Origin: Thermococcus sp. JdFR-02 | GTDB taxonomy: Archaea > Methanobacteriota_B > Thermococci > Thermococcales > Thermococcaceae | Assembly: GCA_002009975.1 (NCBI GenBank) | Contig: MTLP01000015.1 | Coordinates: forward strand, 1 to 22,514 | DNA: 22,514 nucleotides | Reading direction: 5' to 3' | Shown: one piece after another, positions 4,846-21,760 of the stretch | Position numbering within the stretch: the first letter of the stretch is position 1 | Layout: the number at the start of each line of letters is the position of its first letter | Translations under genes and position numbers: made by a program | Notes under the pieces: model-generated | The model's database searches: none | What the model was told of the DNA's origin: nothing | Seen by the model: the letters and a program-made list of their open reading frames with translations, nothing else

Positions 4846-4881
4846 ATGGTTAGCATACTTCACGCGGAGGCGTCTTCAGGC

Positions 4882-6632: not shown

Positions 6633-7409
6633 ATGGATAAGAGTTGCGTCTCGAGCATACAAATTCACTTTAAGACTGAGGAGAAGATGGTCTCCTTTGT
6701 TGTGCCTGCCTTCAATGAGGCTGGTGGCATCGCTGTTGTGATGAATGAACTCAAAAAGGCAATGCACACACTAAATCAGAAATACGAGATACTGCTGGTA
6801 GACGACGGAAGCACAGACTCCACCCTGGAGAAAGCAAGGGAACTTGAAAAAATGCACAATGGCATTGTTAAGGTGCTCTCCTACAATAGAAACAGGGGAA
6901 AGGGGTATGCCCAGAAGTATGGTTTTGAGCACTCGAAGGGTGAGCTGATATTTTTCATGGATGCAGACGGCGACCTGCCCCCTAGGCAGATAAACAGATT
7001 TCTTGAGGTGATGGAGAAGAGCAGGGCAGACGTTGTGACCGGCTCAAAGAGGCACCCCGATTCAAGGGTTGTAAACTATCCCACCAGTAGAAAGGTGTTG
7101 AGCACCCTCTATGTTCTACTTACCAGAGTGCTCTTCAATTTGAATGTCAGGGATACACAGGTTGGCATGAAGCTGTTCAAGCGTGAAGTGCTTGAAGAGG
7201 TGATGCCAAAGATTCTAGTAAAGAGGTATGCCTTTGATGTGGAGCTGCTGGCAAACGCCACCCGGAGGGGTTACAAGATCGTGGAAGCACCTGTAGAGCT
7301 GACCTTCAAAAATGACAGCAGAATAAACGTCAAAGCGATATGGAACATGTTTGTGGATACCTTCGCTATCGCCTACAGAATGCACATCCTGAGGCACTAC
7401 GACAGGTAG
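6633..7409 (+). CDS. GT2 glycosyltransferase, dolichyl/polyprenyl-phosphate hexose synthase-like (Alg5/DPM1 type)
   Basis: VVPAFNE, VDDGSTD, NRGKG, DADG, GSKRH, DTQVGMKLF and AFDVELL motifs. Alternative start ATG 6687. Confidence 0.9.
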   Translation: MDKSCVSSIQIHFKTEEKMVSFVVPAFNEAGGIAVVMNELKKAMHTLNQKYEILLVDDGSTDSTLEKARELEKMHNGIVKVLSYNRNRGKGYAQKYGFEHSKGELIFFMDADGDLPPRQINRFLEVMEKSRADVVTGSKRHPDSRVVNYPTSRKVLSTLYVLLTRVLFNLNVRDTQVGMKLFKREVLEEVMPKILVKRYAFDVELLANATRRGYKIVEAPVELTFKNDSRINVKAIWNMFVDTFAIAYRMHILRHYDR

Positions 7410-7419
7410 CGTTGTTACG

Positions 7420-8493
7420 ATGAAAATCCTCTGGTATAACTGGCGGGATATAAAAAACCCTGAAGCAGGGGGTGCAGAGGTTTATACCCATGAGATAGCG
7501 AGGAGGCTGGTGGAGAGAGGCTACTCCGTAACGCTGTTTACCGCCGAGTTTAACCGTTGCAGACGAGAGGAGATTGTGGATGGGATTAGAATCATAAGGC
7601 GTGGTGGAAAGTATTCGGTCTATAGAAAAGCAAGAGAATACTGGAAAAAGAATAAGAATTTCGATGTGGTTATTGACGAGATCAACACCAGACCTTTTCT
7701 CACCCCCAAGTATGCCGACAGGGAAAAAATCATCGCCCTGATACACCAGCTCGCCAGGGAGTTCTGGTTCTATGAGACTCCCTTTCCTGTAAGCATGATA
7801 GGATACTACTTTCTTGAAAACTACTGGCTGAGGCATTACCGAAGCGTGCCCACCATCACCGTATCAGAGTCAACGAAGAGCGACTTAGAGCAGCTCGGCT
7901 TTAAGAAGGTCTTCATAGTACCCAATGGCTTGGATGTCAAACCTCTCGACGCCATCCCCAAAAAAAGCGAGCGCCCTACGGTAATCTTCCTGGGCAGAAT
8001 GAAGAGGGCAAAAAAGCCCCAAGACGTCGTTGAGGCGTTCAAGCTGGTAAAGAAAGAGGTTAAGGATGCTCAGCTTTGGATGGTGGGAGACGGATACCTG
8101 CGAAGAAAGCTCGAGCAGAGAGCGAAGGGGGTAAAATTCTTCGGATTCGTAAACGGCAAAACTAGGGTGGAACTGCTAAAGAAAGCCTGGGTTATCGCGG
8201 TGCCAGGAGTAAGAGAAGGCTGGGGGCAGGTGGTAACGCAAGCCAACGCCTGCGCTACGCCTGCAGTTGGCTACGACATCCCGGGCTTAAGAGACTCCAT
8301 AAAGCATAGGTACAACGGCCTGCTCGTAGAGAGCGGCGATATCCACGCTTTTGCGGAGGCGATGATAAAGGTTCTAATCGACGATGAGCTGAGAAAGAAA
8401 CTGAGCAACAACGCGCTGGAGTGGGCTAAACAGTTCAGCTGGGATAAGAGTGCTGAGGAGTTTGAGAGGGTGATTGATCATGTCATCGAATGA
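7420..8493 (+). CDS. GT4 (GT-B) glycosyltransferase, WRD...GGAE subtype
   Basis: NWRDIKNPEAGGAEVY at the N-terminus; FLGRMKRAKK; REGWGQVVTQANACATP and GLRDSI in the C-terminal domain. Confidence 0.92.
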   Translation: MKILWYNWRDIKNPEAGGAEVYTHEIARRLVERGYSVTLFTAEFNRCRREEIVDGIRIIRRGGKYSVYRKAREYWKKNKNFDVVIDEINTRPFLTPKYADREKIIALIHQLAREFWFYETPFPVSMIGYYFLENYWLRHYRSVPTITVSESTKSDLEQLGFKKVFIVPNGLDVKPLDAIPKKSERPTVIFLGRMKRAKKPQDVVEAFKLVKKEVKDAQLWMVGDGYLRRKLEQRAKGVKFFGFVNGKTRVELLKKAWVIAVPGVREGWGQVVTQANACATPAVGYDIPGLRDSIKHRYNGLLVESGDIHAFAEAMIKVLIDDELRKKLSNNALEWAKQFSWDKSAEEFERVIDHVIE

Positions 8494-9319
8494 GTCTAAA
8501 GGTTATCCCTTAGTTTCAATTGTAATTCCAACATATAACTCAGAAAGAACATTAGAAAAATGCTTAGAATCGATTAAAAATCAAACTTACAAAAATGTCG
8601 AAGTCATAGTAATTGATAAAGGTTCAAAGGATAATACTGTTAAAATTGCTAAAAAATATACAGATAAAACTTTTGTCATAAATGCAAATGAAAGAAGTGA
8701 GCAAAAAAACTACGGTATTAAGAAGTCTAATGGTGAATATATCTGTTTTATAGATTCTGACATGGAACTAATGTCAAAAGTAATAGAAGAATGTATTAAT
8801 TTAATAGAGTCTGATGAGAAAATAGGTGGAATTATTATCCCAGAAAGATCAGTCGGTGATAATTTCTGGGCTAAAGTTAGGGATTTTGAAAGAAGCTTTT
8901 ATGCTGGCACAGAAATAGAATCTGCAAGATTTTTCAGGAAAGATTTAGCATTAGAAGTTGGTGGATTTGATGAAAATTTAATTTTCTTCGAAGAAGCTAC
9001 TTTACCACAAAAAATAAAGAAATTGGAATATAATATTAAAGCAAGGATAAAAATAGAGATATTACATCATGAAGATAACCTCTCACTTTTAAGATGGTTG
9101 ATGAAGAAGTATTACTACGGAAAAACGGCTTGGAAGTATATTGAGAAATATAAAGAATATGGAAGTAAGCAAATAAGCCCACTAAGTAGGCTTGGTTTGT
9201 TCCTTAAAAATAAAAAATTTTATTCGGAACCTTTATTAGCTTTTGGAGTTATAATTCTAAAAAGTTTAGAATACGCCTCGGCTACTTCAGGATATTTGGT
9301 TGGAAAGGTGAAAGAATAA
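8480..9319 (+). CDS. GT2 glycosyltransferase
   Basis: VSIVIPTYNS, IDKGSKD, FIDSD and GGFDE motifs; GGTGA RBS before ATG 8480 (the ORF is open from TTG 8474). First gene of the low-GC block. Confidence 0.92.
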   Translation: MSSNESKGYPLVSIVIPTYNSERTLEKCLESIKNQTYKNVEVIVIDKGSKDNTVKIAKKYTDKTFVINANERSEQKNYGIKKSNGEYICFIDSDMELMSKVIEECINLIESDEKIGGIIIPERSVGDNFWAKVRDFERSFYAGTEIESARFFRKDLALEVGGFDENLIFFEEATLPQKIKKLEYNIKARIKIEILHHEDNLSLLRWLMKKYYYGKTAWKYIEKYKEYGSKQISPLSRLGLFLKNKKFYSEPLLAFGVIILKSLEYASATSGYLVGKVKE

Positions 9320-10149
9320 TGCCATTACTAACTCTTGTAAATAAAATCATTAGATCAAAAGGAAATATAGTTAAAATTAAATTTAAGGTAAGAGATGAGT
9401 CTTTTGAGGCTTATGTTCCTGATGATCAATATTGGATAAGTATTAAAGACATTCTACTGAATAGAGAATATGAATATCTACCGGAATTCGAATTGAACAA
9501 TTTCAAAGAAAAGGCAATTGTGATTGATGCTGGAGCTCACGTAGGCCTCTTTTCCTTAGTTGCTTCTGGTTTTGCAGACAAAGTCATAGCAATAGAACCA
9601 CATCCTATAAATTATAGGTTTTTGGAAATTAATAAAATTAAAAATAATTGCTCGAATATTATTCCCGTGAATAAAGCATTAGTTGGTAAAAATATTTCAA
9701 AAGTAAGAATTTACGATGCAGATCTCACAAGTAGTTCTACAATTCTTAATAAAAAAGTAAAAAGTGGTTATGACGTTTCAACTATTACTTTGGAAGAGAT
9801 TATAGAAATATGTGGACAAATAGACTTACTAAAGGTGGATATAGAAGGTGCTGAGTTTGATATTTTCAAAAATGTAAGTAACAAAAGTTTAAGGCAAATA
9901 AGGGCAATAGTTGGAGAAATCCACTTAGAGCATGGAGATATAAACTCGATTACTCAAACGTTGGAGAATGTAGGATTTGAAGTTTCTTACTTTCACCCAC
10001 CTCTTGTTAAAAAATCTAGCAAGATACCAATAGAACTTCATGGTTGCATTAAGCTTAAAATTTTAAGGAGGTTAGTTTACACCTTCGTTTCTTTAGGAAA
10101 TATGGAGGAGAAAAGTTTGGCAATATTATTTGCTAAAAAAGAAAAGTAG
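9319..10149 (+). CDS. FkbM-family SAM-dependent methyltransferase
   Basis: IDAGAHVGLFS, AIEPHP and LKVDIEGAE motifs; TAATG coupling to the upstream GT2. Confidence 0.92.
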   Translation: MPLLTLVNKIIRSKGNIVKIKFKVRDESFEAYVPDDQYWISIKDILLNREYEYLPEFELNNFKEKAIVIDAGAHVGLFSLVASGFADKVIAIEPHPINYRFLEINKIKNNCSNIIPVNKALVGKNISKVRIYDADLTSSSTILNKKVKSGYDVSTITLEEIIEICGQIDLLKVDIEGAEFDIFKNVSNKSLRQIRAIVGEIHLEHGDINSITQTLENVGFEVSYFHPPLVKKSSKIPIELHGCIKLKILRRLVYTFVSLGNMEEKSLAILFAKKEK

Positions 10150-10431
10150 TTGGAGATGTCTAAAATGGGGGACAAACCAAAAGTTATAATAATTGATCTG
10201 GATGGAACAACTTGGGATTTAATAAAGCCTTGGACTGATGAAGGGAAATTACCTACTTTTAAAAAATTAATGGAAAATGGAGCTTGGGGCATCTTAAAAA
10301 GTGCAACACTATCAGTAACCTTTCCTGATTGGGAAGTATTATTTATTGGGGCAAATCCTGGGAAATTTGAGGTATATAATTTTGTTCAAGTTGGCATTTG
10401 TAAAAATAAATTGACTTCCAATGGGTGTTAA
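10150..10431 (+). pseudogene. Truncated AlkP-superfamily phosphodiesterase (N-terminal fragment)
   Basis: KVIIIDLDGTTW...LPTFKKLMENG..G.LKS...VTFPDW...NPGK aligns by eye with the N-terminus of ORF 12686 but stops after about 90 aa, with degenerate motifs. Confidence 0.8.
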
Positions 10432-10434
10432 AAA

Positions 10435-11592
10435 ATGTCTCTAAAAGTTCTTTTCATTATGAATGGGATAGGAAAAAGTGGAGAAAAAGTTGGAATTAGT
10501 GGAGGAGATGTTAGATGGATAGAAATAGCAAAAGAATGGCAAAAAATAGGGGTTGAAATTCATGTATTAACTTTAGATGCTGGAGAAGAATTATGTAGGA
10601 GATTGGGATTAAATGCAATATTCTATCATATAAAAGCACCATCTAAATATTCATTATTCTCTTATATTATTAGATTTTTTAATTCTATAAAAATTCCTAA
10701 GGAATTAAAAAATTTTGATGGAATAATATGCACAACAACAGATCATATTTATGATGTACTACCGGGCGTATTACTCAAAAGGAAAAATAAAAATAAGCTA
10801 ATTATAACGGCTCATTGGGTTGCACCATTAATTAGAAAAGGCACCTCATTATCAAATAGCGTATTTTTTTATTTAAATCAACGTTCAGGGTATTTCTTAA
10901 CAAAAAAATATGCAGATATTGTTCTAGCAGTTTCTGAATCTACAAAACAAGCCATATTGAATAAAATAAAAATACCCGAAGATAAAATAAAAGTCGTTGA
11001 AGCTGGCGTGCATTATGAAAAAATAAGAAACATAGCTTCAAATATTAAAAAAAATGAATATAGTGGTGTTTTTATGAAAAGATTCGATGGAACAAAAGGT
11101 GTTTTTGATATAATAGAAATATGGAAAAGAGTTGTAAAAGAAATATCCGACGCTAAACTCATATTAATAGGCCATGGAACAAATGATACATTAAGAAAAT
11201 TAAAAGTAATGATTAAAAAAAATGATCTTGAAGACAATATCCAAATATTAGGCATTATATATGACTTTGATAGAAAATTTGAAACACTTGCAAGAAGTAA
11301 GATATTTTTACTTCCAAGTTATGAGGAAAATTGGGCAATAGTTATTGGAGAAGCTATGGCCACTGGACTTCCTGTAGTATGTTATGAATTACCTGAAATT
11401 CAACCTATATGGAAAGACAATGTTATCTGGGTTCCTAAAGGAAACAAAGAAATATTTGCTAAGAAAATAGTTGGATTGCTTCAAAATGAAGACATCAGAA
11501 ACGAACTTGGTAATAGATGTGTTGATTTTGTTAAAAAATATGACTGGAAAGAGATAGCTAAAAAAGAAATGGACCTAGTATTAGATAACTAA
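10435..11592 (+). CDS. GT4 glycosyltransferase
   Basis: SGGD near the N-terminus, AVSESTK, KRFDGTKG and LPSYEENWAIVIGEAMATGLPVV (E-X7-E). Confidence 0.92.
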   Translation: MSLKVLFIMNGIGKSGEKVGISGGDVRWIEIAKEWQKIGVEIHVLTLDAGEELCRRLGLNAIFYHIKAPSKYSLFSYIIRFFNSIKIPKELKNFDGIICTTTDHIYDVLPGVLLKRKNKNKLIITAHWVAPLIRKGTSLSNSVFFYLNQRSGYFLTKKYADIVLAVSESTKQAILNKIKIPEDKIKVVEAGVHYEKIRNIASNIKKNEYSGVFMKRFDGTKGVFDIIEIWKRVVKEISDAKLILIGHGTNDTLRKLKVMIKKNDLEDNIQILGIIYDFDRKFETLARSKIFLLPSYEENWAIVIGEAMATGLPVVCYELPEIQPIWKDNVIWVPKGNKEIFAKKIVGLLQNEDIRNELGNRCVDFVKKYDWKEIAKKEMDLVLDN

Positions 11593-11593
11593 C

Positions 11594-12512
11594 TGTACAG
11601 TGACATCACATCTGCCCGCTCCGCTTTTGTTGTCAGGACATATGTCCTATTCTTGTAAAACCTTCACCTACTTCAAATACCTCTCTGCCGGCACAATCCA
11701 GCCAATTCCTCCGTGTCCTCTCACCCAATTATACCCCTGAAACCTACTGAGTTTCCAGCTGACTGTGGTCCAAGTTGGAAAATACCACATGACCTATCAG
11801 CTCCCGGTACATAATTTTAAAGAATGCCTCAATCTTGCCTCTCGCTTAAGGGTTATATGGTCTACCCACAATCAGCTTAATTCCTTTCTTCGTATAGAAA
11901 TTTTTAAACGCCTTTGCAGCAAACTGCGCCGTTATCCACATATAGCGCTCTGGGCGTCATCCCCGTTTTCAGTGCATGGGCAAGCGTATCGATGGCGATG
12001 GCAGCAGTCTTACACTTATATATCTTCAAAGCAGGGCAGAGCGAGAGTGGTCATCGATTATCCCGGAGACCCTGACTTTGCTCCTGCCGCGAATCCTGAA
12101 CTCGTAGATGTCCATCTGCCAAAAAGAGTCAGGATGTTTCCTCTCGAAGCGCTTACAGAGTTTCTTCCTGGGCTTAATCCTCGTCAGCAGCCCATTCCCC
12201 TTTAGAACACGGTGCACCGTCCTGTAGTTGGACTCTTCTCTACCTGTCTCGTCAAAGAGAATGTAGAAAAGCCTCCTGGCTCCTGCTGCAGGGTTCCTGA
12301 GCTTGGCATCAATTATCAATAATTCATCTTCCTCAGGCAGCTTGTTGTGTACATGTTTCGGCGCTCTCGGTCTGGGTAGTAACCCGCTGTACCCTTCCTC
12401 ATGATACCTCTTTGCCCAGTGCCTGAGAGTTCTTACGCTTATATACCAAGATAAGACCAGATATCAGAGGTGGAGTTGCTTTTGGAAGCTTACTAATTAT
12501 GACGTATCTAAT
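11594..12512 (-). mobile_element. Decayed IS481-family element (frameshifted transposase, one end missing)
   Basis: Minus-strand pieces: HTH SVRTLRHWAKRYHEEGYSGL; RFERKHPDSFWQMD; IIDDHSR; VDNGAQF; PYNP*ARGKIEAFF; YNWVRGHGG...PAERY* (stop at 11668). TGT-type end at 11594 and a perfect palindrome AGGACATATGTCCT at 11635-11648. Confidence 0.85.
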
Positions 12513-12699
12513 AAAAAATTATGGTAGATTTAATTTTTATAAAAGAAGGAAGACCAGTAGAGTATATAAGAGCGTTCTCCCCTAAAAGTTTAAAAGAAAT
12601 GTTAGAAGATAATGGTTTTGAAGTTCTAGTAATTTCTATCCTTCATTGTCCACAGTTTTCTTAATTGCTGCCATAAAAAGGGGGAATGATAATGTCTAA
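12513..12699 (+). pseudogene. C-terminal remnant of a class I SAM methyltransferase
   Basis: PVEYIRAFSPKSLKEMLEDNGFEV in one frame and YPSLSTVFLIAAIKRGNDNV* in another. These are typical methyltransferase C-termini; the 5' part is absent at the IS junction. Confidence 0.5.
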
Positions 12700-14152
12700 C
12701 AGAGTTATAGTCATTGGTCTCGATGGAGTTAGCTGGAACGTTCTAGATCCAATATTAAAGGAAGACTTAATGCTTAATTTAAAAAGCCTAAAAGAAGATA
12801 GTATCTACGGAGAGCTTGAAAGTTGCGTTCCTCCGGTAACTTTCCCTGCGTGGAAGTGCTATTCTACAGGAAAAGATCCGAGTCAATTGGGTGTTTATTG
12901 GTGGATGAATCTCGACTTTAAACACAAGAAATTCATTTTAAATAGCTCTTTATCGTTTAAGGGGAAGGATATATGGGATTACCTCTCAGAAAAAAGTTTA
13001 AAATCTATTGTGATAAACATGCCTGGAACATATCCAGCTAGGAAAATAAATGGTATATTAATTGCAGGCCCGCCTAATCCATCTTTAAGAAAAAGCGTTT
13101 ATCCCAAAGAATTATTTGAAAAATTAGTAAGAATAAATTATAAAAATATGCCAGAAGCCAAATGGAGTATAGAAGGTCTCAAGGTCATTAAAGAATGTAG
13201 AATTATACATAAACAACAATGTAAACTTGCTTTAGAGTTGATGGAGAAAAAAAGCTGGGATTTTTTCCACTTTACTTTCGTCTTGACTGATCCTATTTTG
13301 CATCATTTTTGGAACCATCACAAAGATCTACTAGACTCTGACAACAAAATAACTGAGGAATTACGTAAATTTTGGAGAGATATCGACTACTTTATAGGGA
13401 AATTCATCGAAAAAGCTAGTGAAGATGATTATATTTTTATAATTTCCGATCATGGCATGGTGAAAATGGATTATAAATTTTATTTAAATAATTTTTTAGA
13501 ACAAGAAGGGTATCTCAAACTTAAATGGAAAAGTTACATTCGTGATAGGATGATTTCATATTTACCAAAAAGAAAAGTAGGTGAATTATTTTCAAAAATT
13601 CATATGATGAAGCCAACATCTAAAATTTTACAATTGTTAGGTCTATTAGATAAATTCAATCCTACCAAAGATATTGAATTAAATGAAGAACTAATCAATT
13701 GGAAAAAAACAAAAGCTATTTGTCTAAGTGACGCATCTGCACTGATATACACAAATAACATGAACGAAAATGAAAAATATGAACTATTTGATTTGCTTAA
13801 AAGTTTTAAACATAATGATAAAAAGGTTTTTGAAAAAGTTTGTTACGCATCAAAAATTTATGAAAATATTCAAGAGAACTCTCCTAATATAATTGCTATT
13901 CCAAGAAGAGGTTATGAGATAGCGCCTGGAATAGGGAAAAAAGTATTTAAGAGTAGTAGGGAAGATATTTGGAGATCTACTCATAAAGTAGGGGGCATGT
14001 TTTTAGTAAGAGGGGCTGATCTAAAATTTAAGACTAAAAATACAACAATCTACGATGTGGCACCTACAATATTATCTCTACTTGATTTTCCAGATGTCGA
14101 ATTCATGAATGAAATGAAAGGACGTATACTAAATAATTTAGGAAGGGATTAA
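12686..14152 (+). CDS. AlkP-superfamily type I phosphodiesterase / nucleotide pyrophosphatase
   Basis: IGLDG, PPVTFPAW (Thr nucleophile position), TDPILHHFW, ISDHG and IYDVAPTIL motifs; no signal peptide. Confidence 0.9.
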   Translation: MIMSNRVIVIGLDGVSWNVLDPILKEDLMLNLKSLKEDSIYGELESCVPPVTFPAWKCYSTGKDPSQLGVYWWMNLDFKHKKFILNSSLSFKGKDIWDYLSEKSLKSIVINMPGTYPARKINGILIAGPPNPSLRKSVYPKELFEKLVRINYKNMPEAKWSIEGLKVIKECRIIHKQQCKLALELMEKKSWDFFHFTFVLTDPILHHFWNHHKDLLDSDNKITEELRKFWRDIDYFIGKFIEKASEDDYIFIISDHGMVKMDYKFYLNNFLEQEGYLKLKWKSYIRDRMISYLPKRKVGELFSKIHMMKPTSKILQLLGLLDKFNPTKDIELNEELINWKKTKAICLSDASALIYTNNMNENEKYELFDLLKSFKHNDKKVFEKVCYASKIYENIQENSPNIIAIPRRGYEIAPGIGKKVFKSSREDIWRSTHKVGGMFLVRGADLKFKTKNTTIYDVAPTILSLLDFPDVEFMNEMKGRILNNLGRD

Positions 14153-14154
14153 AT

Positions 14155-17100
14155 ATGGGGGCAATCATTAAAATCAAGAGGGAAAGACTTTTGGATGTTA
14201 TTGTTATAATATTCTATTTAATCATTTCTATCCTATCCGTTAGGGAACTATTATTTAGCAAATTTCTTGTAGGGATGAGACATGACTGGTTTTCAGCACC
14301 ATACCCGCAAATGGTGATAGATCATATTAAAAGTGTATTTTTTATTTGGTACGACCAACAAGGCTATGCTTTTTTCAGAGCTAATGTATTGTACTATTAT
14401 TTGTTTTTTAAAGGATTATTAGGTTTATTAACTGGTTTTAATGGCATACTACTCCCTAAAATTGAGATAGGGTTTCTAATTTTTATGTCAGGACTATTTA
14501 TGTATTATCTGCTCTGTAAAATAGAGATTTCAAAGTTTGGTGCGTTTATTTCTGGACTATTTTATATGTTAACACCTATAGTGTTTAATAGAGTTATAGC
14601 TGGTCATCTTGAATATTTGTTCTCATATGCACTCTCACCATTGGTTTTAAGTTTGTTTATTATGGCTATAAAGGAAGATAAACTAAATTGGAAATATATC
14701 ATTTTATCTGGACTTATTTATGGAATTTCAGTTACGCAACATCAATTTATAGTTTATATATCTTTTTTGATTTTTCTTTATATTTCATTATTCTCATTAG
14801 TGATGCATCGTATATATATAAAATATATCACGGCCTTTTTCATAATCTTAGCGATTGGATTTATGTTACATTTGTTTTGGATAATCCCTGCAATTCATAG
14901 GACAATTCCAATATACCACATGGCACCTTTAGCGTATCATGGCATTCAGGTCAGTCCTAATATAATAGAATCATTTCTAATGATTGGTTATCCCCACCCA
15001 TATGATTATATGTCATTAATTTCCAAGGGATTATTACCTAGTCTACAATTATACTTCCTGTTTTTTCCACTAATTTCTCTAGCTACTTTACTAAGTAAAA
15101 GAATGTATTTGTACAAATTATTTGCGGCAATAGTATTATTAGTAGGCATATTTATGGTAACAGCCCTAAAACAACCTTTTGGCAGTCTCTGGAAATTGTT
15201 ATTCATGTATATACCACCTTTTCGAGTTTTTAGAGAAGTGTATCACTCTGAATTTCTTGTTGCTTTCTCACTAAGTATTCTTCTTGGAATATTTATTGGG
15301 GAAATATTAAATAAAATTAAAACATTACAACCATATGACAAAATAGTAAAAGGTAGTATAATTATTATTGTTACTATATTACTTATCCTAGTTGGATTAC
15401 CTGTAATTTCTGGCAATTTTGTTGGACAAATTGGAACATATACTTTTCCAGATGAATATAAACCCATATATCAGAGCATACACTCAGATACTGAGCCATA
15501 TCGTGTTTTATTCCTCCCATCAATCGGACCTTTTAAATATTCTAGTAGTTCTTTTCAAGGATTTGATCCAATGATTCAATCGCCTCCAAAACCAACATTC
15601 CAATCTCTAGTAGACCGGACAAACACATTTAATAGATTTCATAAATACTTTATTTACCAGTTAAGACAGGGAAAGAATATTGAGAATTATCTCGATATAG
15701 TTGCAGTTAGATATATCATGACTAGACCATTTTCAGAAAGTTGGTACCTGTATTATGTGCTTTCATCACCAACACTAAAAGTTAAGTGGAAAAATTATAA
15801 TTTCACTGAAGATTTTAAGTGGGCAAACAACGTTAGGAATGAGGGTAGTCTGATAATAATACATAAAAATAACTCTTACTTCTTCAAGGTAGTAAATGTT
15901 TCTTTAGTTATTGGAAATTTAAAGACTATTAGCAAACTTCCAAATAATAGTTATGACAATACGGCCTTGATCTATAATAGGGACATTAAAATAGAAAGCC
16001 AAAAATTTTTGAGAAATTTTATAAATAAAATTCTAATAGATAATCAAAAATGGATAGAAGAGCTTATTCTAACTTTACCAAATTTTACAATAAAATATCT
16101 TACATTACAAAGCGAGTTATCGAATCCCAACAAAGGTTGGGCCTACGATACAAATTCTTGGTGGCATTATTCAGAAATAGCAGCTCTAACCCCATATTAT
16201 GGCATAAATACTGTATTAACCTCAGCTAACAAAGTTCATATAAACACATCTTTTAACATCAATAAATCTAATAACTACAAACTCCTCATCCGCTACTTCA
16301 AAAACCAAAAAGGCGGAGGGATAAAAGTTTACATCGATGGCAAACCCACAGAAATTAATACAAAAGGTCAGCTCAACAAGTTCGTGTGGAAAGACCTTGG
16401 AACTTTCTACCTTGAAAAAGGCAAACACGAACTGATTCTTGAAAATGTTAATGGCTTCAACGCCGCCAACTTGTTCGTATTAATTCCAGAGGAAGAGTAC
16501 TACAAAGCAAAAGAAAAAGTTGAAAAACTCCTCCAGAACAAAACACTAATCTACCTCTTCGAAGCCGAAGCCGACCTCTACAGGACTAACGCAGAAATAA
16601 CTAAAAACATCAACGCTAGCAATGGAGAGGCATTGCTGTTAGGTGAAAATAGTAAAGCTTGGCAAGATATTGAGATTGTCAAGAATGGAACGTATAGAAT
16701 TGCTTTAAAAGGAATTGGAAAATTCAAGGTTAAGGTAGGCAATTATTCTTCCATATTGAAATTAAACTCTTTGAACTATACATATTCTCCTATGTTCTAT
16801 CTTGATGAAGGAAAATACAGGCTTGAGATAGTTCATTTAAATGTTAAAAATCCTGTTCTCGACGTTATCTGGCTCTACTCCACAGAAACAAATCAAACAA
16901 TAGAGCAACTCTTCGAAATGAGAGAAAAGCCTGCAGAAGTAATCAACTATACAAAAATCAACCCCACCCTCTGGAAAGTTAAAGTCAACGCCGCAAAACC
17001 TTTCACGCTGAGCTTTGCAGAGGCTTATGATCCCATCTGGGAGGCAAGGGTTTACAAAGATGGTAAAAAGGTTGAAACGGTTAAATCAATTCCGCTCTAC

Positions 17101-17337
17101 TCTGTGATAAACGGCTTCTGGATCAACGAAACGGGAGAGCTTGAAATCGTAATAAGATACAAACCGCAAGATTGGTTTGAAAGAGGCTTAATAATCTCTG
17201 CAACCACATTTATTGGTTGCATTGGATATCTCTTCTACGACTGGAGGAGAGGGAAAGGAGACAGGTGGACAAAGAGACTGGAGAAAAAGATTAGAAGATA
17301 TTTAGAGTCCATAAAGAAAAAGCTCACCACCTCTTAA
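14155..17337 (+). CDS. Large GT-C-like multipass membrane protein (AftD/DUF3367- or YfhO-like) with extracellular carbohydrate-binding-like domains
   Basis: About 11-13 TM segments in aa 1-420. Motifs include RHD in loop 1, FYMLTPIVFNRVIAGH, FREVYH, FPDEY and YRVLFLP. CBM6/35-like segments (LGTFYLEKGKHELIL; FYLDEGKYRLEI) follow, then a YfhO-like tail AEAYDPIWEA...NGFWI...YKPQ and a final TM. Confidence 0.8.
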   Translation: MGAIIKIKRERLLDVIVIIFYLIISILSVRELLFSKFLVGMRHDWFSAPYPQMVIDHIKSVFFIWYDQQGYAFFRANVLYYYLFFKGLLGLLTGFNGILLPKIEIGFLIFMSGLFMYYLLCKIEISKFGAFISGLFYMLTPIVFNRVIAGHLEYLFSYALSPLVLSLFIMAIKEDKLNWKYIILSGLIYGISVTQHQFIVYISFLIFLYISLFSLVMHRIYIKYITAFFIILAIGFMLHLFWIIPAIHRTIPIYHMAPLAYHGIQVSPNIIESFLMIGYPHPYDYMSLISKGLLPSLQLYFLFFPLISLATLLSKRMYLYKLFAAIVLLVGIFMVTALKQPFGSLWKLLFMYIPPFRVFREVYHSEFLVAFSLSILLGIFIGEILNKIKTLQPYDKIVKGSIIIIVTILLILVGLPVISGNFVGQIGTYTFPDEYKPIYQSIHSDTEPYRVLFLPSIGPFKYSSSSFQGFDPMIQSPPKPTFQSLVDRTNTFNRFHKYFIYQLRQGKNIENYLDIVAVRYIMTRPFSESWYLYYVLSSPTLKVKWKNYNFTEDFKWANNVRNEGSLIIIHKNNSYFFKVVNVSLVIGNLKTISKLPNNSYDNTALIYNRDIKIESQKFLRNFINKILIDNQKWIEELILTLPNFTIKYLTLQSELSNPNKGWAYDTNSWWHYSEIAALTPYYGINTVLTSANKVHINTSFNINKSNNYKLLIRYFKNQKGGGIKVYIDGKPTEINTKGQLNKFVWKDLGTFYLEKGKHELILENVNGFNAANLFVLIPEEEYYKAKEKVEKLLQNKTLIYLFEAEADLYRTNAEITKNINASNGEALLLGENSKAWQDIEIVKNGTYRIALKGIGKFKVKVGNYSSILKLNSLNYTYSPMFYLDEGKYRLEIVHLNVKNPVLDVIWLYSTETNQTIEQLFEMREKPAEVINYTKINPTLWKVKVNAAKPFTLSFAEAYDPIWEARVYKDGKKVETVKSIPLYSVINGFWINETGELEIVIRYKPQDWFERGLIISATTFIGCIGYLFYDWRRGKGDRWTKRLEKKIRRYLESIKKKLTTS

Positions 17338-18760
17338 ACTTAAACTCGTACTTTTCGCCGTTCAGGTATATCGCTGAGGTCAGGTTCTTCGCTTTAATGC
17401 TTACACCTGACTTAAAGAAAATAGCGCCCTTTCTCGTGGCGCCCGGGTAGAGAACGTCCAGGTTTAGCTGGTCTGGATGCGCAACCCACCTTCCAGCGGC
17501 ATCCTTAATCTTAACATAGGTGTAGTCATAGGTGTTGCCCAAGTCGTCTATGAGCACGGGGTTGTAGGGGGTGAATTGAAATTTGACTTCCTTTTCGCCC
17601 ACGTTCTTTACTTCTATGTCCACGCGGGAGTACGTCTCTTCCAGAGTATCTTTGACGACTTCGACATATACCATACCGTAAAATCTCTTTAGCGTGACCT
17701 CTAAATTGCCCGCCCTAATAGTGTCACCAATGGTGTAAATCTTCTCTTTTTCTTCTTCTGAGGTAGCGTTAATGGTGAAGTAGACGGTTTGAGAGGTGGC
17801 GTTGCCCTGGGTATTGTTGGCTAAGAGTGTTAAGCTGTGCAAACCATTGCTCAAATCTCTTACCACGACTATGTTGTTTACAAGAATAGAGGAACCAGCG
17901 ACTTTTAGGACAAGTTCATCATAAATCTTGTTTTTATTTTGCAGAGGATAGGTTAACCACTCTTTATCATTAATTTTTACTTTTGCATTTCCGTTTTCAA
18001 AGTATATTTCAATGTTATATGGCTTGTTGTATGTTATTTCAACAGGAGCTTTTGTTTGAGTCCATTTCCAGACACCTTTTTCAGTCTGCCCTACGAAACC
18101 TCCTGAAGGTGCATAACTGGAATCGTAGGGGTAAACTTGAAATTTCAGTGCATCGCCTGTTTTGCTGACTAAGTAAATGCCAAAATATGGGCTGGAAGCT
18201 GACTTCTCTAAGAATGTAAATTCTGCAGTGTATCTATAGTTAAAGGAGAAGTTTCCAGTTTTTCTCCATTCTTTCAGTTCCTCTGGTACTTCTCCAATCA
18301 AAACTGGTGCTAGATAACTATCCACCTCCGCTATGTACCCGTCGTGAGGTATGGAGATGTTCTCCCCACCGTCGATTGAAAGCAATACGGTGTCGAGGTA
18401 AGGACCGTAAACCCTAAATCTCACTGGTGGAAGAGAGGTGGTATAGGTATCGTTCTTGGGTTCGTAGAGCACGATTCTAGGTGGGGGTACATTACCGCTG
18501 GGGGCTTGCTCTTCTGGCACCTTCTCAGGTGCTTTCATCTCCGCAGGTGGAGGTGAGGTTTGTGGGGCAGTTTTCTGCTCAGCCACTTTCTGGGGCGCTT
18601 GGGTTGCAGGTGCCTGCTCCGCCTTCTCGCCCCCTGGCAAAGAGGAGAACAGCAGGAAGGCGAAGATTAAAATCACAAGCGCTATACCGAAAAGCTCCGG
18701 GCTGCTTCGCCTCGCAATCTTTTCCCTAATCTTTTTTCTCCTCTCCTCTAATTCGTTCAA
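17324..18760 (-). CDS. Membrane-anchored surface protein: TM, P/A/Q linker, Ig-like domain with inserted beta domain, C-terminal DUF4352-like domain
   Basis: TM FGIALVILIFAFLLF; Ig-like PRIVLYEPKNDTY...GLHSLTLLANNTQGN...VYFTI; tail IGDTIRAGNLEVT...VKNVG...LIDDLGNTY...LYPGATRKGAIFF. TTG 18760 has a GGGGG RBS; the ORF is open from 18799. Confidence 0.8.
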   Translation of the reverse strand: MNELEERRKKIREKIARRSSPELFGIALVILIFAFLLFSSLPGGEKAEQAPATQAPQKVAEQKTAPQTSPPPAEMKAPEKVPEEQAPSGNVPPPRIVLYEPKNDTYTTSLPPVRFRVYGPYLDTVLLSIDGGENISIPHDGYIAEVDSYLAPVLIGEVPEELKEWRKTGNFSFNYRYTAEFTFLEKSASSPYFGIYLVSKTGDALKFQVYPYDSSYAPSGGFVGQTEKGVWKWTQTKAPVEITYNKPYNIEIYFENGNAKVKINDKEWLTYPLQNKNKIYDELVLKVAGSSILVNNIVVVRDLSNGLHSLTLLANNTQGNATSQTVYFTINATSEEEKEKIYTIGDTIRAGNLEVTLKRFYGMVYVEVVKDTLEETYSRVDIEVKNVGEKEVKFQFTPYNPVLIDDLGNTYDYTYVKIKDAAGRWVAHPDQLNLDVLYPGATRKGAIFFKSGVSIKAKNLTSAIYLNGEKYEFKFKRW

Positions 18761-18800
18761 GGCTACGCCCCCGTCTATGTCCACAATAAAGATGCGCAAT

Positions 18801-18820
18801 CAAAGTATATATAATTATAT
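18801..18820. promoter_or_regulatory. Probable bidirectional TATA region between divergent genes
   Basis: CAAAGTATATATAATTATAT is the only AT-rich element in the 82-bp gap between starts 18760 (-) and 18843 (+). Confidence 0.55.
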
Positions 18821-18842
18821 CAATTGAGGTGTAGTTTAGGCT

Positions 18843-19892
18843 ATGATAGAAAGGGAGGAGCTGGTAAGGGGGCTGGTGGTGGTATCCTTTCTCGCGCTCC
18901 TTCTCAGGTACAGGGGCAGCGAGGATGCGAGGACGGCTATAGTCTTTGCCTTTTACTTTCTGGCTGCGCTCATATACAGGATAGACCCCCGCTACCCTGT
19001 GCTTGCTGCAATAGGCTCCCTTGTGCTTGCGGCAATACTTCTCGCACAGCAGAAGGAAGCCCTCGCCAATAGGGTTGCGGTCTATGCCTACTACTTCCTG
19101 GTGGTGGGCGTGCTTTTGAATCTGGTGGATTACCTGAGGGAGGGTAGAGAGGAGGAGTTTGTGCCCGAGGGGGAGCTCAAAAATAAGGTTCTCGCCATAA
19201 CCTCCGGCAAGGGTGGTGTTGGCAAAACAACGCTAGCGAGCAACCTTGCTGTTGCTCTTGCGAAGCTGAAAAAGAGGGTAATCGTAATTGACCTTGACCT
19301 GGCGATGCCCAACCTGGATATAGCCATGGGCGTTGAATGCAGAGGGCTAGAGGAAGCCCTGAAAGAGGGGAAGGGCATAGAGGAGGTCGTGGTGAGAAAT
19401 CTTGGGTGCGATATACTGGCAACGCTGCCCATAAAAGATGGATACAAAGACAGGGGGATGCTGGAAAAAATTAAGGAGGTAATAGGTGAGATAAGTCAGA
19501 GGTATGAGGTGGTGGTGCTTGACTTTCCGCCTGGCGTCGAAGCCCTCGATGTTATTGACAGCGATACGCAAGTGCTGATAGTTGCCAACCCCGAGAAGCT
19601 TTCCATCGCCGACGCTTACAACGTTAAGAGGGCGCTTGAAGGCAGGGCGAGGGTTCTCGGAGTGGTTATAAACAAAGCCAACGGTGCTGATGTAGAGGCG
19701 GTAGAGGAGATGCTCTCATTGCCTGTTTTAGCTGTGCTGCCGGATGAAGAGAGGGTTAGGGAAGCCCTTGAGGCAGAGACGCCTCTGGTTGCAAAAGATG
19801 AGGAATGCGAATTCTCGAGGGAGGTGGAGGAGCTTGTGAAGTTTCTGATAAAATACTGGGAGAGGGGGGAAGGCAGGGGTGAAGCTGGGTGA
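18843..19892 (+). CDS. MinD/ParA-family ATPase fused to an N-terminal ~4-TM membrane domain
   Basis: aa 1-100 are hydrophobic helices ending ANRVAVYAYYFLVVGVLLNLVDY. Then come the deviant Walker A SGKGGVGKTT, IDLDLAMPNL, LDFPPG and GVVINK. GAGGTG RBS. Confidence 0.88.
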   Translation: MIEREELVRGLVVVSFLALLLRYRGSEDARTAIVFAFYFLAALIYRIDPRYPVLAAIGSLVLAAILLAQQKEALANRVAVYAYYFLVVGVLLNLVDYLREGREEEFVPEGELKNKVLAITSGKGGVGKTTLASNLAVALAKLKKRVIVIDLDLAMPNLDIAMGVECRGLEEALKEGKGIEEVVVRNLGCDILATLPIKDGYKDRGMLEKIKEVIGEISQRYEVVVLDFPPGVEALDVIDSDTQVLIVANPEKLSIADAYNVKRALEGRARVLGVVINKANGADVEAVEEMLSLPVLAVLPDEERVREALEAETPLVAKDEECEFSREVEELVKFLIKYWERGEGRGEAG

Positions 19893-21406
19893 GGTACGCC
19901 CTTCTTTTAGCGGCGCTCATCTACTTTCTGACCCTCGGGGAATTTCTCCTCTCGCCCGGCACGCTTATATACTTGGACCACGTCCCAAGCCTCTATCCCG
20001 AGAAGTACTTCGCCATTGTCTTAAGCGGGGCAAACATCTGGGGCGCCGCCTCGCTTGCAAGCCTGCCCTTCTGGGTGCTGTTTACCCTCGCCTCAAAAAT
20101 ACTCTCACCCTTCCTATTTCTTGAATTGTTCTGGCTGGCGTGCTTCCTTATAGGTAGCGCTTTCCTATTCAAAAGTCTCGAAACCAGGCGAGAATGTAAG
20201 TACCTTGGCGTGCTCCTTCTCCTCTTCAACCCATTCATGTACCTCAGAATAACCGCCGCCGGGCAGCTGGGCATGGTGATCTCAGCAGCGCTGGCGCCGG
20301 CGTTTCTCTACTTTCTCTTCAGCTACTACAGAGCGCCCAGCAGAGGAGGTGCCCTCAAGCTTGCCCTTGCGTATACCCTCGCGTCGATGTTCCAGGCTCA
20401 CTTCTTTATACTCAACGCTGTGATATTCATCCTCTACTCGGGCATTTTAGCCGTAAGAAAAGAGACTGGCGTGAAGGAAATAGGCGTCGCCTCCCTCGCG
20501 CTCCTGCTTGTAAACCTCTACTGGGTAGCTTTCATCCCTATTCTCAAGCCCGTTGCAATCGCCGGGGTAACCCAGGAGCAAATGGAATTCTTCTATCCAA
20601 AGCCTTCCCTTGACCTGAACGGAGCGACGAAGCTTGCAGGCTTATATGGCTTCTGGAGGGAGGCTGCGGTTGAAAAAATATACGATGAGGTGCCCTTCTA
20701 CGCCTTCTTGGGGTTTGTCTCCCTGCTCATCTACTTCTCCATCCACGGCTTTCTGAGCGCGCCCAGAGAAAGTAGAAATATCCTCTTCATTATTTTGATT
20801 TTTCTCGGCATAATCCTTGCCCTCTCCTCTTCATACCTTGAGCTCAAGCCCTTCAGGGACAGCCATAAGTTTGCCTACTTCACCCTGCTCGGCTACACTT
20901 ATCTAATACCCCGTGGGGTGGAGGCGCATAAAAGGCTGAAGCTTCTCCTCCTCATGGTAGTTGCGGTGCTGCTCTACTTCAACCACATGCAGATATTCCT
21001 AGCCGGGCAGCTCAACCCAATAAATTACCCTGAAGAGTACAAAGAGGCTGGCAAAGCCTTGAACCACATAGAGGGAGAAGTGCTCTATCTGCCCTGGAAG
21101 CAGTACATGACATACAACTGGTCGCTGAGAGCAGGGCTGGACGGAAGGATAGGGAACCCGATAAACGCGGTTACCAAGAAGATGGTAATAACCGGCTGCG
21201 ACCCTGCTCACGACTTCTGCATGGAGACGCAAGCGCAAAGCAAAATAAGAGCATGTCTGCAAAATAAAAGCATACCCTGCCTGAAGAATCTCAACGTTAC
21301 TCACGTAATTATCGACTCCTGCGCATTTGTACCGGAGGATGATTCCTGGGTTGAGGGGAGGGAGGTGTTTAACAAAGGGTGCATCAGAATTTTAAAGCTA
21401 CTGTGA
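19889..21406 (+). CDS. GT-C-like multipass membrane protein (Rv0226c-like / short DUF3367-like)
   Basis: LLSPGTLIYLD, FNPFMYLR..AGQ, NLYW, GLYGFW, FRDSHKF, YPEEY and VLYLPW motifs; GTGA coupling to the ATPase gene; motif order is collinear with ORF 14155. Confidence 0.75.
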   Translation: MRYALLLAALIYFLTLGEFLLSPGTLIYLDHVPSLYPEKYFAIVLSGANIWGAASLASLPFWVLFTLASKILSPFLFLELFWLACFLIGSAFLFKSLETRRECKYLGVLLLLFNPFMYLRITAAGQLGMVISAALAPAFLYFLFSYYRAPSRGGALKLALAYTLASMFQAHFFILNAVIFILYSGILAVRKETGVKEIGVASLALLLVNLYWVAFIPILKPVAIAGVTQEQMEFFYPKPSLDLNGATKLAGLYGFWREAAVEKIYDEVPFYAFLGFVSLLIYFSIHGFLSAPRESRNILFIILIFLGIILALSSSYLELKPFRDSHKFAYFTLLGYTYLIPRGVEAHKRLKLLLLMVVAVLLYFNHMQIFLAGQLNPINYPEEYKEAGKALNHIEGEVLYLPWKQYMTYNWSLRAGLDGRIGNPINAVTKKMVITGCDPAHDFCMETQAQSKIRACLQNKSIPCLKNLNVTHVIIDSCAFVPEDDSWVEGREVFNKGCIRILKLL

Positions 21407-21559
21407 AAGTCCAACACAGCTAGGGTGTGTCTCTGCTGATTTTTTAAACTACCACTCGCTTTCGCAAGGATACTTCCCGCACCAAGGTTAAAACAGCTCA
21501 GAGGGTGTTAGGAAGTCTTGCTTAAATCCTGCTCACTATTCGAGAAGCTCCTCTTTTAT

Positions 21560-21760
21560 TCATTCATGCTCATGCAGATTTATTTCCGGGATCGGAATTC
21601 CTCTGGCGGTCCTTATAAGTATCCACCCTTCCGGTGCTTCTTCCAGCTCTCTTCTGCATACATCGATGGTTTCAGCGCAGGTGTACACACTTCTTAGCTC
21701 AGGAATCTCTCCGAAGTACTTTTTGCTCTCAGGCAAAACCTTGTATTTTGCTATTCTCAT
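21560..21760 (-). pseudogene. hicB: HicB-family antitoxin, apparently 5'-damaged and orphan
   Basis: YFGEIPELRSVYTCAETIDVCRRELEEAPEGWI...GIPIP is HicB-like. An in-frame TAA lies three codons upstream of the ATG (FQY*GVMRIAKY). No hicA is recognisable. Confidence 0.65.

Follow-up and report, generated by a model that had tools for sequence, protein, structure and literature searches.

A MinD-type ATPase joined to a small membrane module in a surface-glycosylation island of Thermococcus sp. JdFR-02

What does a MinD-type ATPase do when it is held in the membrane immediately ahead of a glycosyltransferase gene? The question is raised by the gene at 18843-19892 of a 22,514-nt stretch of Thermococcus sp. 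JdFR-02 (contig MTLP01000015.1, positions 1 to 22,514; hereafter the window), which a Pfam scan of its open reading frames (ORFs) marks as an archaeal surface-glycosylation island with an eRF1 gene at the right end. The initial annotation of the gene product, P0001, described a multi-transmembrane (multi-TM) domain fused in frame to a complete MinD-like ATPase and, by analogy with BcsQ and Wzc, suggested that the protein localises or regulates the machinery of the GT-C glycosyltransferase encoded next to it. Our own proposal, held tentatively and with a little less than even confidence, is that P0001 acts as an ATP-dependent dimerisation switch or scaffold tethered to a dolichol-phosphate-sugar-dependent surface glycosylation complex. 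The gene, its parts and its direct neighbours are as follows.

18843-19892, + strand: TM-MinD gene, 349 aa (P0001), from the ORF, its translation, homologues and run contigs
18843-19145, + strand: N-terminal four-helix membrane module, residues 1-101 (predicted helices), the last two helices forming the conserved core
19146-19184, + strand: acidic flexible linker, residues 102-114 (low model confidence)
19185-19862, + strand: MinD-type ATPase domain, residues 115-340 (Pfam, NCBIfam, Foldseek, phmmer)
19203-19232, + strand: Walker A, SGKGGVGKTT, residues 121-130
19889-21406, + strand: glycosyltransferase of predicted GT-C fold, 505 aa (P0002; predicted structure, Foldseek)
17324-18799, - strand: divergent single-pass membrane protein, 491 aa (P0004), with DUF4352 and an extracellular lectin-like domain
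18692-18760, - strand: conserved basic tail of P0004 on the cytoplasmic side, adjoining the TM helix (NELEERRKKIREKIARRSS; alignment of homologues)
18761-18842: divergent intergenic region of 82 nt with the AT-rich stretch AAAGTATATATAATTATATC (read from sequence)

The in-frame union of a membrane domain and a complete ATPase was upheld, with four helices in residues 1-101 and the ATPase in residues 115-340. The AlphaFold2 model (28-row alignment, mean predicted local distance difference test score, pLDDT, of 85.8) places the helices at residues 4-22, 27-44, 50-68 and 72-101, followed by the linker and then the MinD fold. Extracytoplasmic loops of the module are predicted to be at most 10 residues long, and none is a large loop of the PCP (polysaccharide co-polymerase) type. 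The linker of roughly 14 residues falls below a pLDDT of 50 at residues 101-104 and has a block mean of 61; the MinD fold closes with a helix at 323-340, after which the final 9 residues are again below 50. Residues 115-335 match P-loop families of the CbiA/ParA/MinD type (Pfam CbiA, 76.6 bits; PF10609, 73 bits), and in the NCBIfam ranking archaeal MinD (TIGR01969) is best at 135.1 bits, followed by bacterial MinD at 113.6. The top solved structure in Foldseek is A. fulgidus MinD (1hyq; E 2.9e-16, TM-score 0.86 on target, root-mean-square deviation 2.3), after which come Aquifex MinD, FlhG, FleN and Pyrococcus MinD. A phmmer search of PDB sequences returned 1hyq at E 3.8e-24 and the CapA/CapB chimera 4jlv at E 7e-11.

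The deviant Walker A is invariant in 28/28 full-length homologues, including K128 and the signature lysine K123, whose retention (GKGGVGKT) had been pointed out initially. The switch (Walker A') and Walker B aspartates D150, D152 and D227, invariant in the same 28, correspond to the DxD and D in the solved archaeal MinD structures, and Walker B reads DFPPG. By fold and motifs P0001 is a MinD-type ATPase with intact nucleotide-binding motifs. It has the fold of the archaeal MinDs (A. fulgidus MinD-1, 1hyq; P. furiosus MinD, 1g3q) at 30% identity, together with their deviant Walker A with signature lysine and switch aspartates. It differs from them in the added N-terminal four-helix membrane domain, in its glycan-island setting and in the family invariants AMPNL (M155, P156) and DFPPG (P229, P230), where the solved archaeal MinDs have TMANL and D.PAG.

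MinD/ParA ATPases are reversible membrane or DNA binders that position cargo. Bacterial MinD, FlhG and FleN, which fill Foldseek ranks 2-20, are like P0001 membrane-associated nucleotide switches of the MinD type, and the available part of a 2026 survey of ParA proteins describes them as binding the membrane reversibly by a C-terminal amphipathic helix (bioRxiv 10.64898/2026.10.19.760177). P0001, unlike these proteins, ends at the last core helix and is predicted to be fixed by TM helices; the AlphaFold2 model contains no C-terminal amphipathic membrane-targeting helix, the anchor being N-terminal instead. That part of the survey describes C-terminal TM forms and holds no description of an N-terminally anchored MinD, and a full-text literature search returned no account of this module or of a MinD anchored in the membrane at its N-terminus.

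The fusion proved neither peculiar to this assembly nor a misassembly. Besides the window's own cluster, a word-index search returned 33 clusters from several sources that cover at least 87% of P0001 at 37-79% identity (342-517 aa). Their N-terminal domains align well and the motif E..ANxxAIYAYYFLVVGV is nearly invariant; the linker and the frame are conserved, the length of the linker differing between homologues. Identical contigs in the runs X1, X2 and X3, from three studies, cover the P0001 gene without a difference, X1 and X2 possibly being themselves the source of the window DNA. X1 spans the entire stretch and X2 record 3 spans 18792-21450; X3 record 8 (18807-19209) bridges the junction of module and ATPase and X3 record 10 (19764-19972) bridges the stop/start overlap. 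X4 and some X3 records cover fragments only. The overlap itself is as initially described: P0001 starts at the ATG at 18843 and stops at the TGA at 19890-19892, which with the GTG of P0002 at 19889 makes up GTGA, a 4-nt overlap. A Shine-Dalgarno-like GGGGTGA is read from the sequence about 8 nt 5' of this GTG.

Across 40 related genomes drawn from the same family, order and class, the matches listed concern the ATPase part only, at 25-41% identity, and none extends into the N-terminal module; the P0001 gene is therefore an accessory gene in this lineage. Its nearest copies, with 77% identity over the whole protein and 81-82% in the module, lie in records titled Hydrothermarchaeota metagenome-assembled genomes (L013, L014), and in L014 the four-gene order of the window is kept. 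In the nearest relatives the fusion is tightly coupled to the GT-C gene. The host genome (G000) has one module copy only, within P0001, and 15 matches to other free MinD/ParA paralogues. In a maximum-likelihood tree of 119 MinD domains all membrane-linked members fall in one clade (35 rows, Shimodaira-Hasegawa-like approximate likelihood ratio test value 97), namely 30 identified by the motif filter, three with a variant motif (P0012, P0036, P0038), the partial P0024, and P0039. Its sister group (27 rows) is made up of free MinDs about 250 aa long, and several of these bear the name Hydrothermarchaeales MinD in their sources. A single origin of the module-MinD fusion is suggested, and only provisionally, because the tree is a quick one and its root a midpoint.

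Two homologues depart from the common architecture. P0039 (346 aa), a member of the clade, is without the N-terminal module and has hydrophobic helices at its C-terminus, which would make it a second, independent route to membrane fixation of this ATPase. In P0005 (517 aa; L056, 246-1799; 79% identical) the full copy is preceded by an additional and diverged repeat of its first ~170 residues, comprising the module plus the Walker A region. The contig is 2122 nt long, and the double N-terminus may be either a partial tandem duplication or an assembly error.

The initial treatment of the N-terminal domain as a generic anchor had to be abandoned, since the domain is an independent module found alongside GT2 (glycosyltransferase family 2), GT-C and Wzx genes where no ATPase is attached. 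Residues 1-110 of P0001 have no Pfam match, even at E<=10, and the same holds for 12 module proteins; in the ESM Atlas these residues met unnamed clusters only, at 0.83-0.84, under the meaningful level. Invariant or near-invariant positions are Y38, F39, D48, R50, L60, A64, E72, A75, A79, Y81-L86, G89, V90 and L92, and the motif ANxxA[IV]YAYY lies within the core E..ANxxA[IV]YAYYFLVVGV of the last two helices. A profile search of 1.84 billion representatives gave 2572 clusters at E<=1e-3 and 660 at E<=1e-10. The best 150 of the 2572 comprise 76 stand-alone proteins (at most 150 aa), 34 with the module C-terminal, 15 with a C-terminal extension, 7 fused to MinD and 18 that a simple rule left unclassified. 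Judged by these comparisons, the module represents a large family of mostly stand-alone small membrane proteins without a Pfam model. When 27 picked longer members were run against Pfam, LytR_C was found in 7, GT2 in one (P0260), Wzx in one (P0218, with the module at its end) and MinD in one; another had only a below-cut-off match to DUF1129, and 16 had no match. The LytR_C fusions (P0145, P0188, P0208, P0223, P0251, P0253, P0265) are a further tie of the module to cell-envelope polymers.

A motif scan of genome and metagenome collections yielded 41 and 80 loci, respectively. With L051, whose module frame is without a start codon, and the duplicates L058, L059, L067, L088, L094, L117, L124 and L129 left out, 112 non-redundant module ORFs remained, 16 with and 96 without a MinD fusion; the window brings the fused loci to 17. 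Non-fused proteins are of three kinds. Some have 54-150 aa, often with the last two helices only, preceded by NWG[AS]PFI; others, of 170-270 aa, end with the module; and two, of 1218 and 1436 aa, carry it N-terminally (L031, L050). A direct neighbour was defined as a gene within 100 nt, and a GT-C was counted only if found by an iterated search seeded with P0002. By this measure 56 of the 96 non-fused loci adjoin at least one of GT2 (30 loci), P0002-like GT-C (23) and Wzx (6). About 20 Bathyarchaeia loci have a module gene of 80 aa that touches or overlaps a GT2 gene of 257 aa, whose product shares 41-45% identity with the GT2 at 6633 of the window (GT2_6633); homologues of GT2_6633 directly downstream of a stand-alone module occur in other groups too.

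A Wzx gene is found directly 3' of the module both in L015, which is fused (module 70% identical), and in L018, where the module stands alone (103 aa, 53% identical). The module therefore works without the ATPase, which has been added to it and looks like a regulatory add-on, not the core of the machine. At the Bathyarchaeia loci L032-L049 a conserved ORF of about 131 aa, with no Pfam family, often lies directly 5' of the module-GT2 pair and may be a further subunit. Toxin-antitoxin and HEPN/AbiEii-type genes adjoin the module in L019, L024, L025, L028, L087 and L132, which would fit variable islands.

In size, and apparently in genomic niche, the module resembles GacJ/Rv3632 (DUF2304) and GtrA, small multi-TM proteins to which it has no detected sequence relation. 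GtrA and ArnE/F are small flippase-type subunits in systems made up of a GT2, a small membrane protein and a GT-C. GacJ and Rv3632 are described, in the available part of a preprint, as small membrane proteins that bind and stimulate GT2s (GacJ-GacI, Rv3632-PpgS) and are sometimes fused to them; GacJ-type proteins are encoded beside a polyprenol-phosphate GT2 and linked to GT-C (bioRxiv 10.1101/180810). Descent of the module from either family was rejected at the sequence level. With hhalign it reached a probability of 0.3% against 9 genuine DUF2304 proteins and 0.2% against 10 GtrA-type domains from related genomes. The control comparison of DUF2304 with GtrA gave 0.4%, and since the scores are at control level the module is taken to be a separate family, the resemblance apparently lying in the genomic niche and not in detectable descent. 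Elsewhere in the host genome there is a genuine DUF2304 gene, as well as a GT2 of ~367 aa that bears a GtrA-type TM domain (contig C4, 19980-20294; C14, 29003-29365), and classical small-subunit solutions thus coexist with the new module in the same genome. With 2572 clusters and no Pfam model, the family offers candidates for absent subunits or flippases in archaeal and bacterial glycosylation, in what would be the niche of GacJ, GtrA or DPM2/3-type subunits of polyprenol-phosphate sugar pathways.

The identification of the downstream gene as a GT-C agrees with its predicted fold. P0002 was modelled by AlphaFold2 with a pLDDT of 92.2 and a predicted template modelling score of 0.92; its 31-row alignment was made by adding relatives from the fetched loci to the 11 proteins found by the word-index search. 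Foldseek ranked AftD (6w98) first, at E 3.8e-7 and a TM-score of 0.65 on query. Eukaryotic STT3/OST, ALG12, AglB, DPY19, PglB, AftA and ArnT are further matches, and the first 30 listed are all GT-C enzymes or complexes containing one. D30, in the first loop just past the helix at 2-21, is invariant in 31/31 and would be catalytic. P0002 itself has no Pfam match, and phmmer against PDB sequences gave 0 matches at E<=10. Among its relatives, Pfam finds GT-C_AftD (PF11847) at 40.9 bits in L073, at 33 in L068 (a protein of 714 aa, P0003-related) and at 26.2 in L066, and GtrII at 37.6 in L099. P0002 further matches the NCBIfam MmpA family below cut-off, at E 1.5e-15, and a 2026 preprint, in its available part, likens MmpA to the first 11 TM helices of AftD and reports that Foldseek points to a glycosyltransferase. 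On the strength of the model, P0002 is assigned to the GT-C fold. The large membrane protein P0003 has a weak MmpA match, and the iterated search joins its family with that of P0002; its N-terminal domain is paralogous to P0002, and P0003 is therefore considered GT-C-like. A complex prediction for module residues 1-110 (28 rows) with P0002 (31 rows) scored 0.00 against a mark of 0.32 and weighs neither way.

Most homologues of P0001 with informative neighbours lie among glycan genes, so that the expected linkage to glycosylation genes was found. The more specific tie to GT-C is direct in 5/17 fused loci (window, L013, L014, L016, L057), where a P0002-like gene follows directly 3', but it is narrower than had been implied, as Wzx takes this position in two (L015, L061) and three loci have no glycan-pathway gene (GT2, GT-C or Wzx) in the flanks scanned. 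Seven of the 16 fused loci other than the window have a GT2, GT-C or Wzx as direct neighbour. In L068 a GT-C_AftD gene lies two genes upstream and a GT2 downstream of the fusion, in L062 and L060 a secreted protein follows it, and the contigs of L055 and L056 are too short for their neighbours to be judged. The earlier functional reading thus keeps its link to glycan assembly in most informative loci, but GT-C is one of several neighbours.

The initial annotation had considered neither the independent life of the module nor the lectin/DUF4352 protein encoded on its other side. A P0004-like gene, divergent and upstream, is the commonest neighbour found for the fusion (9/17 fused loci vs 0/96 non-fused). 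P0004 matches DUF4352 in Pfam at 31.4 bits and, weakly, Gal-bind_lectin. Its homologues are single-pass proteins whose extracellular lectin-type domains vary (Gal-bind_lectin, CBM_4_9, 3keto-disac_hyd) and are accompanied by DUF4352. Directly ahead of the TM helix they carry a tail with the consensus [DE]ERR[KR]xI[KR]EKI..[KR]S, and a hidden Markov model (HMM) of tail plus TM helix matched the window, L014, L016, L054, L056, L060, L062, L063 and L068 and none of the 96 non-fused loci. Of the 8 fused loci without a tail match, four (L013, L015, L055, L057) have at most 208 nt of upstream sequence. The homologues begin at residue 14 of the window protein, and the true start of P0004 is probably the TTG at 18760 and not 18799; the interval 18761-18842 that this leaves is a putative archaeal promoter, possibly shared by the two divergent genes.

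ATP binding closes MinD/ParA dimers, and in P0001 it would bring about dimerisation and thereby turn the protein into an on/off switch or scaffold for the surface-glycan assembly complex. As the module in other archaea and in bacteria stands beside, or is fused to, GT2, Wzx and GT-C enzymes of the polyprenol-phosphate-sugar route, it would dock the ATPase to a GT-C, GT2 or Wzx, in the window to the co-translated P0002. Short basic peptides of partner proteins stimulate MinD/ParA ATPases, and in BY-kinase (bacterial tyrosine kinase) systems a juxtamembrane cytoplasmic peptide of the partner activates the P-loop domain, as the CapA tail does with CapB. The P0004 tail parallels the CapA-type peptide, and by analogy with both groups it would be the most likely peptide to contact and activate the ATPase, which makes it a candidate MinD-contact peptide. 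P0001 would in this way exert a regulatory effect on glycosylation. P0004 and P0001 together might further constitute an archaeal counterpart, built from other parts, of the bacterial polysaccharide control units that pair a membrane adaptor with a P-loop protein: the extracellular lectin/DUF4352 domains of P0004 would read the growing glycan, its tail would trigger ATP hydrolysis, and the module, as a new and widespread family of small polyprenol-phosphate-sugar pathway subunits, would relay the switch to GT-C, Wzx or GT2. Taken jointly these steps are doubtful. Should they hold, this would be the first known nucleotide-dependent control point for archaeal surface glycosylation; to our knowledge no nucleotide switch in archaeal envelope glycan assembly has been described. 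A membrane-fixed MinD clade associated with glycosyltransferases and a lectin protein would extend the MinD/ParA family to archaeal envelope-glycan control.

Several results weigh against the switch or scaffold proposal. A GT-C follows the fusion in only the five loci named above, and in L020, L021 and L064 the flanks scanned are free of GT2, GT-C and Wzx. The neighbours are housekeeping genes in L021 (MobB, MoaA, ribosomal S24e) and L064 (Mut7-C RNase), and in L020 they are an AAA_14 protein and an unknown protein, with a partial phosphodiesterase-like match about 1.9 kb upstream. Among the non-fused loci, 40/96 have no GT2, GT-C or Wzx directly adjacent, many of these being short contigs. 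The iterated GT-C search runs on membrane proteins and may drift, the tree of MinD domains is a quick search with midpoint rooting, and the score of P0001 against TIGR01969 stays below the curated cut-off of 201.75 bits. The tail HMM was built from 8 of its 9 matched loci, and therefore only L056 and the 96 misses are independent. The lectin-type neighbours of the non-fused L081, L102, L106 and L121 (Laminin_G_3) are 14-16% identical to P0004, so that the contrast of a tail found only with MinD compares different families.

Other explanations can be set against the same evidence. One that we regard as rather unlikely is that P0001 is an ordinary positioning MinD in which TM helices have replaced the amphipathic anchor, with division, motility or chemosensory arrays as cargo; the glycosylation-island location would then reflect only where the anchor was borrowed. 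Such a role would suit a domain that is nearest to archaeal MinD and has free MinDs as its sister clade, the more so as archaeal MinD paralogues have reportedly been described as positioning motility machinery and CetZ1, and it would account for L021 and L064, with housekeeping neighbours only, and for L020, without the three glycan gene types in the flanks scanned. MinD patterning, however, depends on repeated binding to and release from the membrane, a cycle impossible for a protein held there by four TM helices, and the 15 matches in G000 mean that the genome keeps other free MinD/ParA paralogues. For a housekeeping protein it is odd that no full-length gene is among the matches listed for the 40 relatives, and pairing with a lectin protein in 9/17 fused loci and with GT-C or Wzx in 7/17 would not be expected. 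Distinctly unlikely is a role as the energising half of a translocator of lipid-linked sugars, in which two four-helix modules would form the membrane path and ATP-driven closing of the MinD dimer would power the flipping of dolichol-phosphate sugars, in the manner of an ABC half-transporter or of ArsA-type SIMIBI ATPases. The module does occupy the niche of the small flippase or activator subunits of GT2-small protein-GT-C systems (GtrA, ArnE/F, GacJ), with a cytoplasmic ATPase its conserved tyrosine-rich motif would come to lie at the outer membrane interface, and a short linker of ~14 residues joins the two parts. Yet just 7 of the best 150 module clusters are MinD-fused, so flipping would normally go unenergised; no relation to GtrA was detected (hhalign 0.2%), the island already encodes a Wzx flippase, and we know of no MinD-type ATPase that drives such transport.

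P0001 could also belong to an envelope-sensing or defence switch, the lectin domains of P0004 sensing a glycan or a virus and signalling through the tail to the ATPase. The precedent is the proposal, in the available part of the ParA survey, that ParA-CBM systems, in which an upstream single-TM protein bears an extracellular carbohydrate-binding module (CBM), are immune sensors, alongside PCTM proteins, which are ParA-like NTPases fused to C-terminal TM domains (bioRxiv 10.64898/2026.10.19.760177). P0001 and P0004 resemble them in joining a membrane-tied ParA/MinD NTPase to a single-TM carbohydrate-binding protein; variable lectin-type domains in P0004 homologues, the sporadic occurrence of the P0001 gene in relatives and toxin-antitoxin genes near some module loci point the same way. 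Even so we hold a defence role to be very unlikely. PCTM and ParA-CBM have a C-terminal TM domain or a fused CBM, belong to a bacterial ParA clade and come with effector genes, whereas P0001 has an N-terminal module from a glycan pathway, is of archaeal MinD and not ParA lineage, and has glycosyltransferase neighbours, its direct neighbours being biosynthetic (GT-C, Wzx). No effector gene (nuclease, pore, caspase, TIR) adjoins it in the window or in the fused loci, and the PADLOC match, PDC-M28B over 47 residues, is local to the P-loop. Extremely improbable, finally, is an autophosphorylating co-polymerase of the BY-kinase kind, an archaeal counterpart of Wzc/CapAB. P0001 has in common with Wzc and CapA/CapB a membrane part, a P-loop domain of the MinD/ParA superfamily and a polysaccharide locus; BY-kinases carry DxPP at Walker B, which its DFPPG recalls, and the 53.3 bits for TIGR01007 and the match to 4jlv (E 7e-11) are of the weak kind. 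The cut-off of TIGR01007 is 108.05 bits, the MinD match (135.1 bits) is far better, and no BY-kinase is among the 37 Foldseek rows listed (down to rank 50). A tyrosine cluster at the C-terminus is absent, as the initial annotation had observed in setting P0001 apart from canonical BY-kinases, there being a single tyrosine in the last 20 residues (KFLIKYWERGEGRGEAG), and so is a PCP-type extracytoplasmic domain. As for an assembly or gene-calling artefact that joined a small membrane gene to a MinD gene, for which the stand-alone modules and the possible assembly error in P0005 of L056 might be cited, it is refuted by the 33 other clusters, the 16 non-redundant fused loci, the identical contigs of three runs and the conserved linker and frame.

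Membership of two described groups was considered and rejected. P0001 is not a PCTM member, its TM module being N-terminal and no effector-type domain being found among its neighbours. With BcsQ it has in common that a MinD/ParA-type ATPase is placed at the service of a polysaccharide machine (Pfam CBP_BcsQ, 30.2 bits; Foldseek rank 42); BcsQ, unlike P0001, is soluble and works with BcsR/BcsE (entry title of 6ybb). The score against TIGR03371 is 50.6 bits vs a cut-off of 157.85, and the window holds no bcs or cellulose synthase genes.

The remainder of the window, upstream of the P0001 gene and its partners, contains the following genes.

709-2469: PGF-pre-PGF protein, 586 aa (PGF-pre-PGF domain, 85 bits, NCBIfam)
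4846-6117, + strand: Wzx-type flippase (Polysacc_synt, Pfam, 68.2 bits)
6633-7409, + strand: GT2 with no TM helix (Pfam GT2)
7420-8493: glycosyltransferase family 4 (GT4; Pfam)
8474-9319: GT2 (Pfam)
after 8474-9319 in island order: FkbM methyltransferase (Pfam)
10435-11592: GT4 (Pfam)
12686-14152: phosphodiesterase, full gene (Pfam)
14155-17337, + strand: large membrane protein, 1060 aa (P0003), with an N-terminal domain paralogous to P0002

Homologues of the Wzx at 4846 are those found directly 3' of the fused form in L015 and L061 and of the stand-alone module in L018. The best NCBIfam matches of GT2_6633, all below cut-off, are PgfS, ArnC, PpgS, AglJ and Dol-P hexose transferase, for which reason it is classed as a polyprenol-phosphate sugar synthase type; in the window it sits 11.4 kb away from P0001. 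GC content is about 30% at 9-17 kb as opposed to 43-55% on both flanks, and the island is therefore a mosaic. The low-GC block at 9000-17000, which holds the FkbM methyltransferase, a GT4, the phosphodiesterase and the GT-C-like P0003, looks from its composition like a laterally acquired cassette within the glycosylation island. A 93-aa ORF at 10150-10431, probably the remnant of a gene, repeats the N-terminus of the full gene at 12686-14152 and matches the Phosphodiest family over positions 1-65 only. The product of 709-2469 is likely an archaeosortase-processed surface protein, and genes like it occur close to the module in L017, L018 and L024. Between the GT-C gene and eRF1 there is a UPF0150-like ORF of 66 aa with a HicB-type antitoxin fold (21560-21760, - strand, 62.7 bits).

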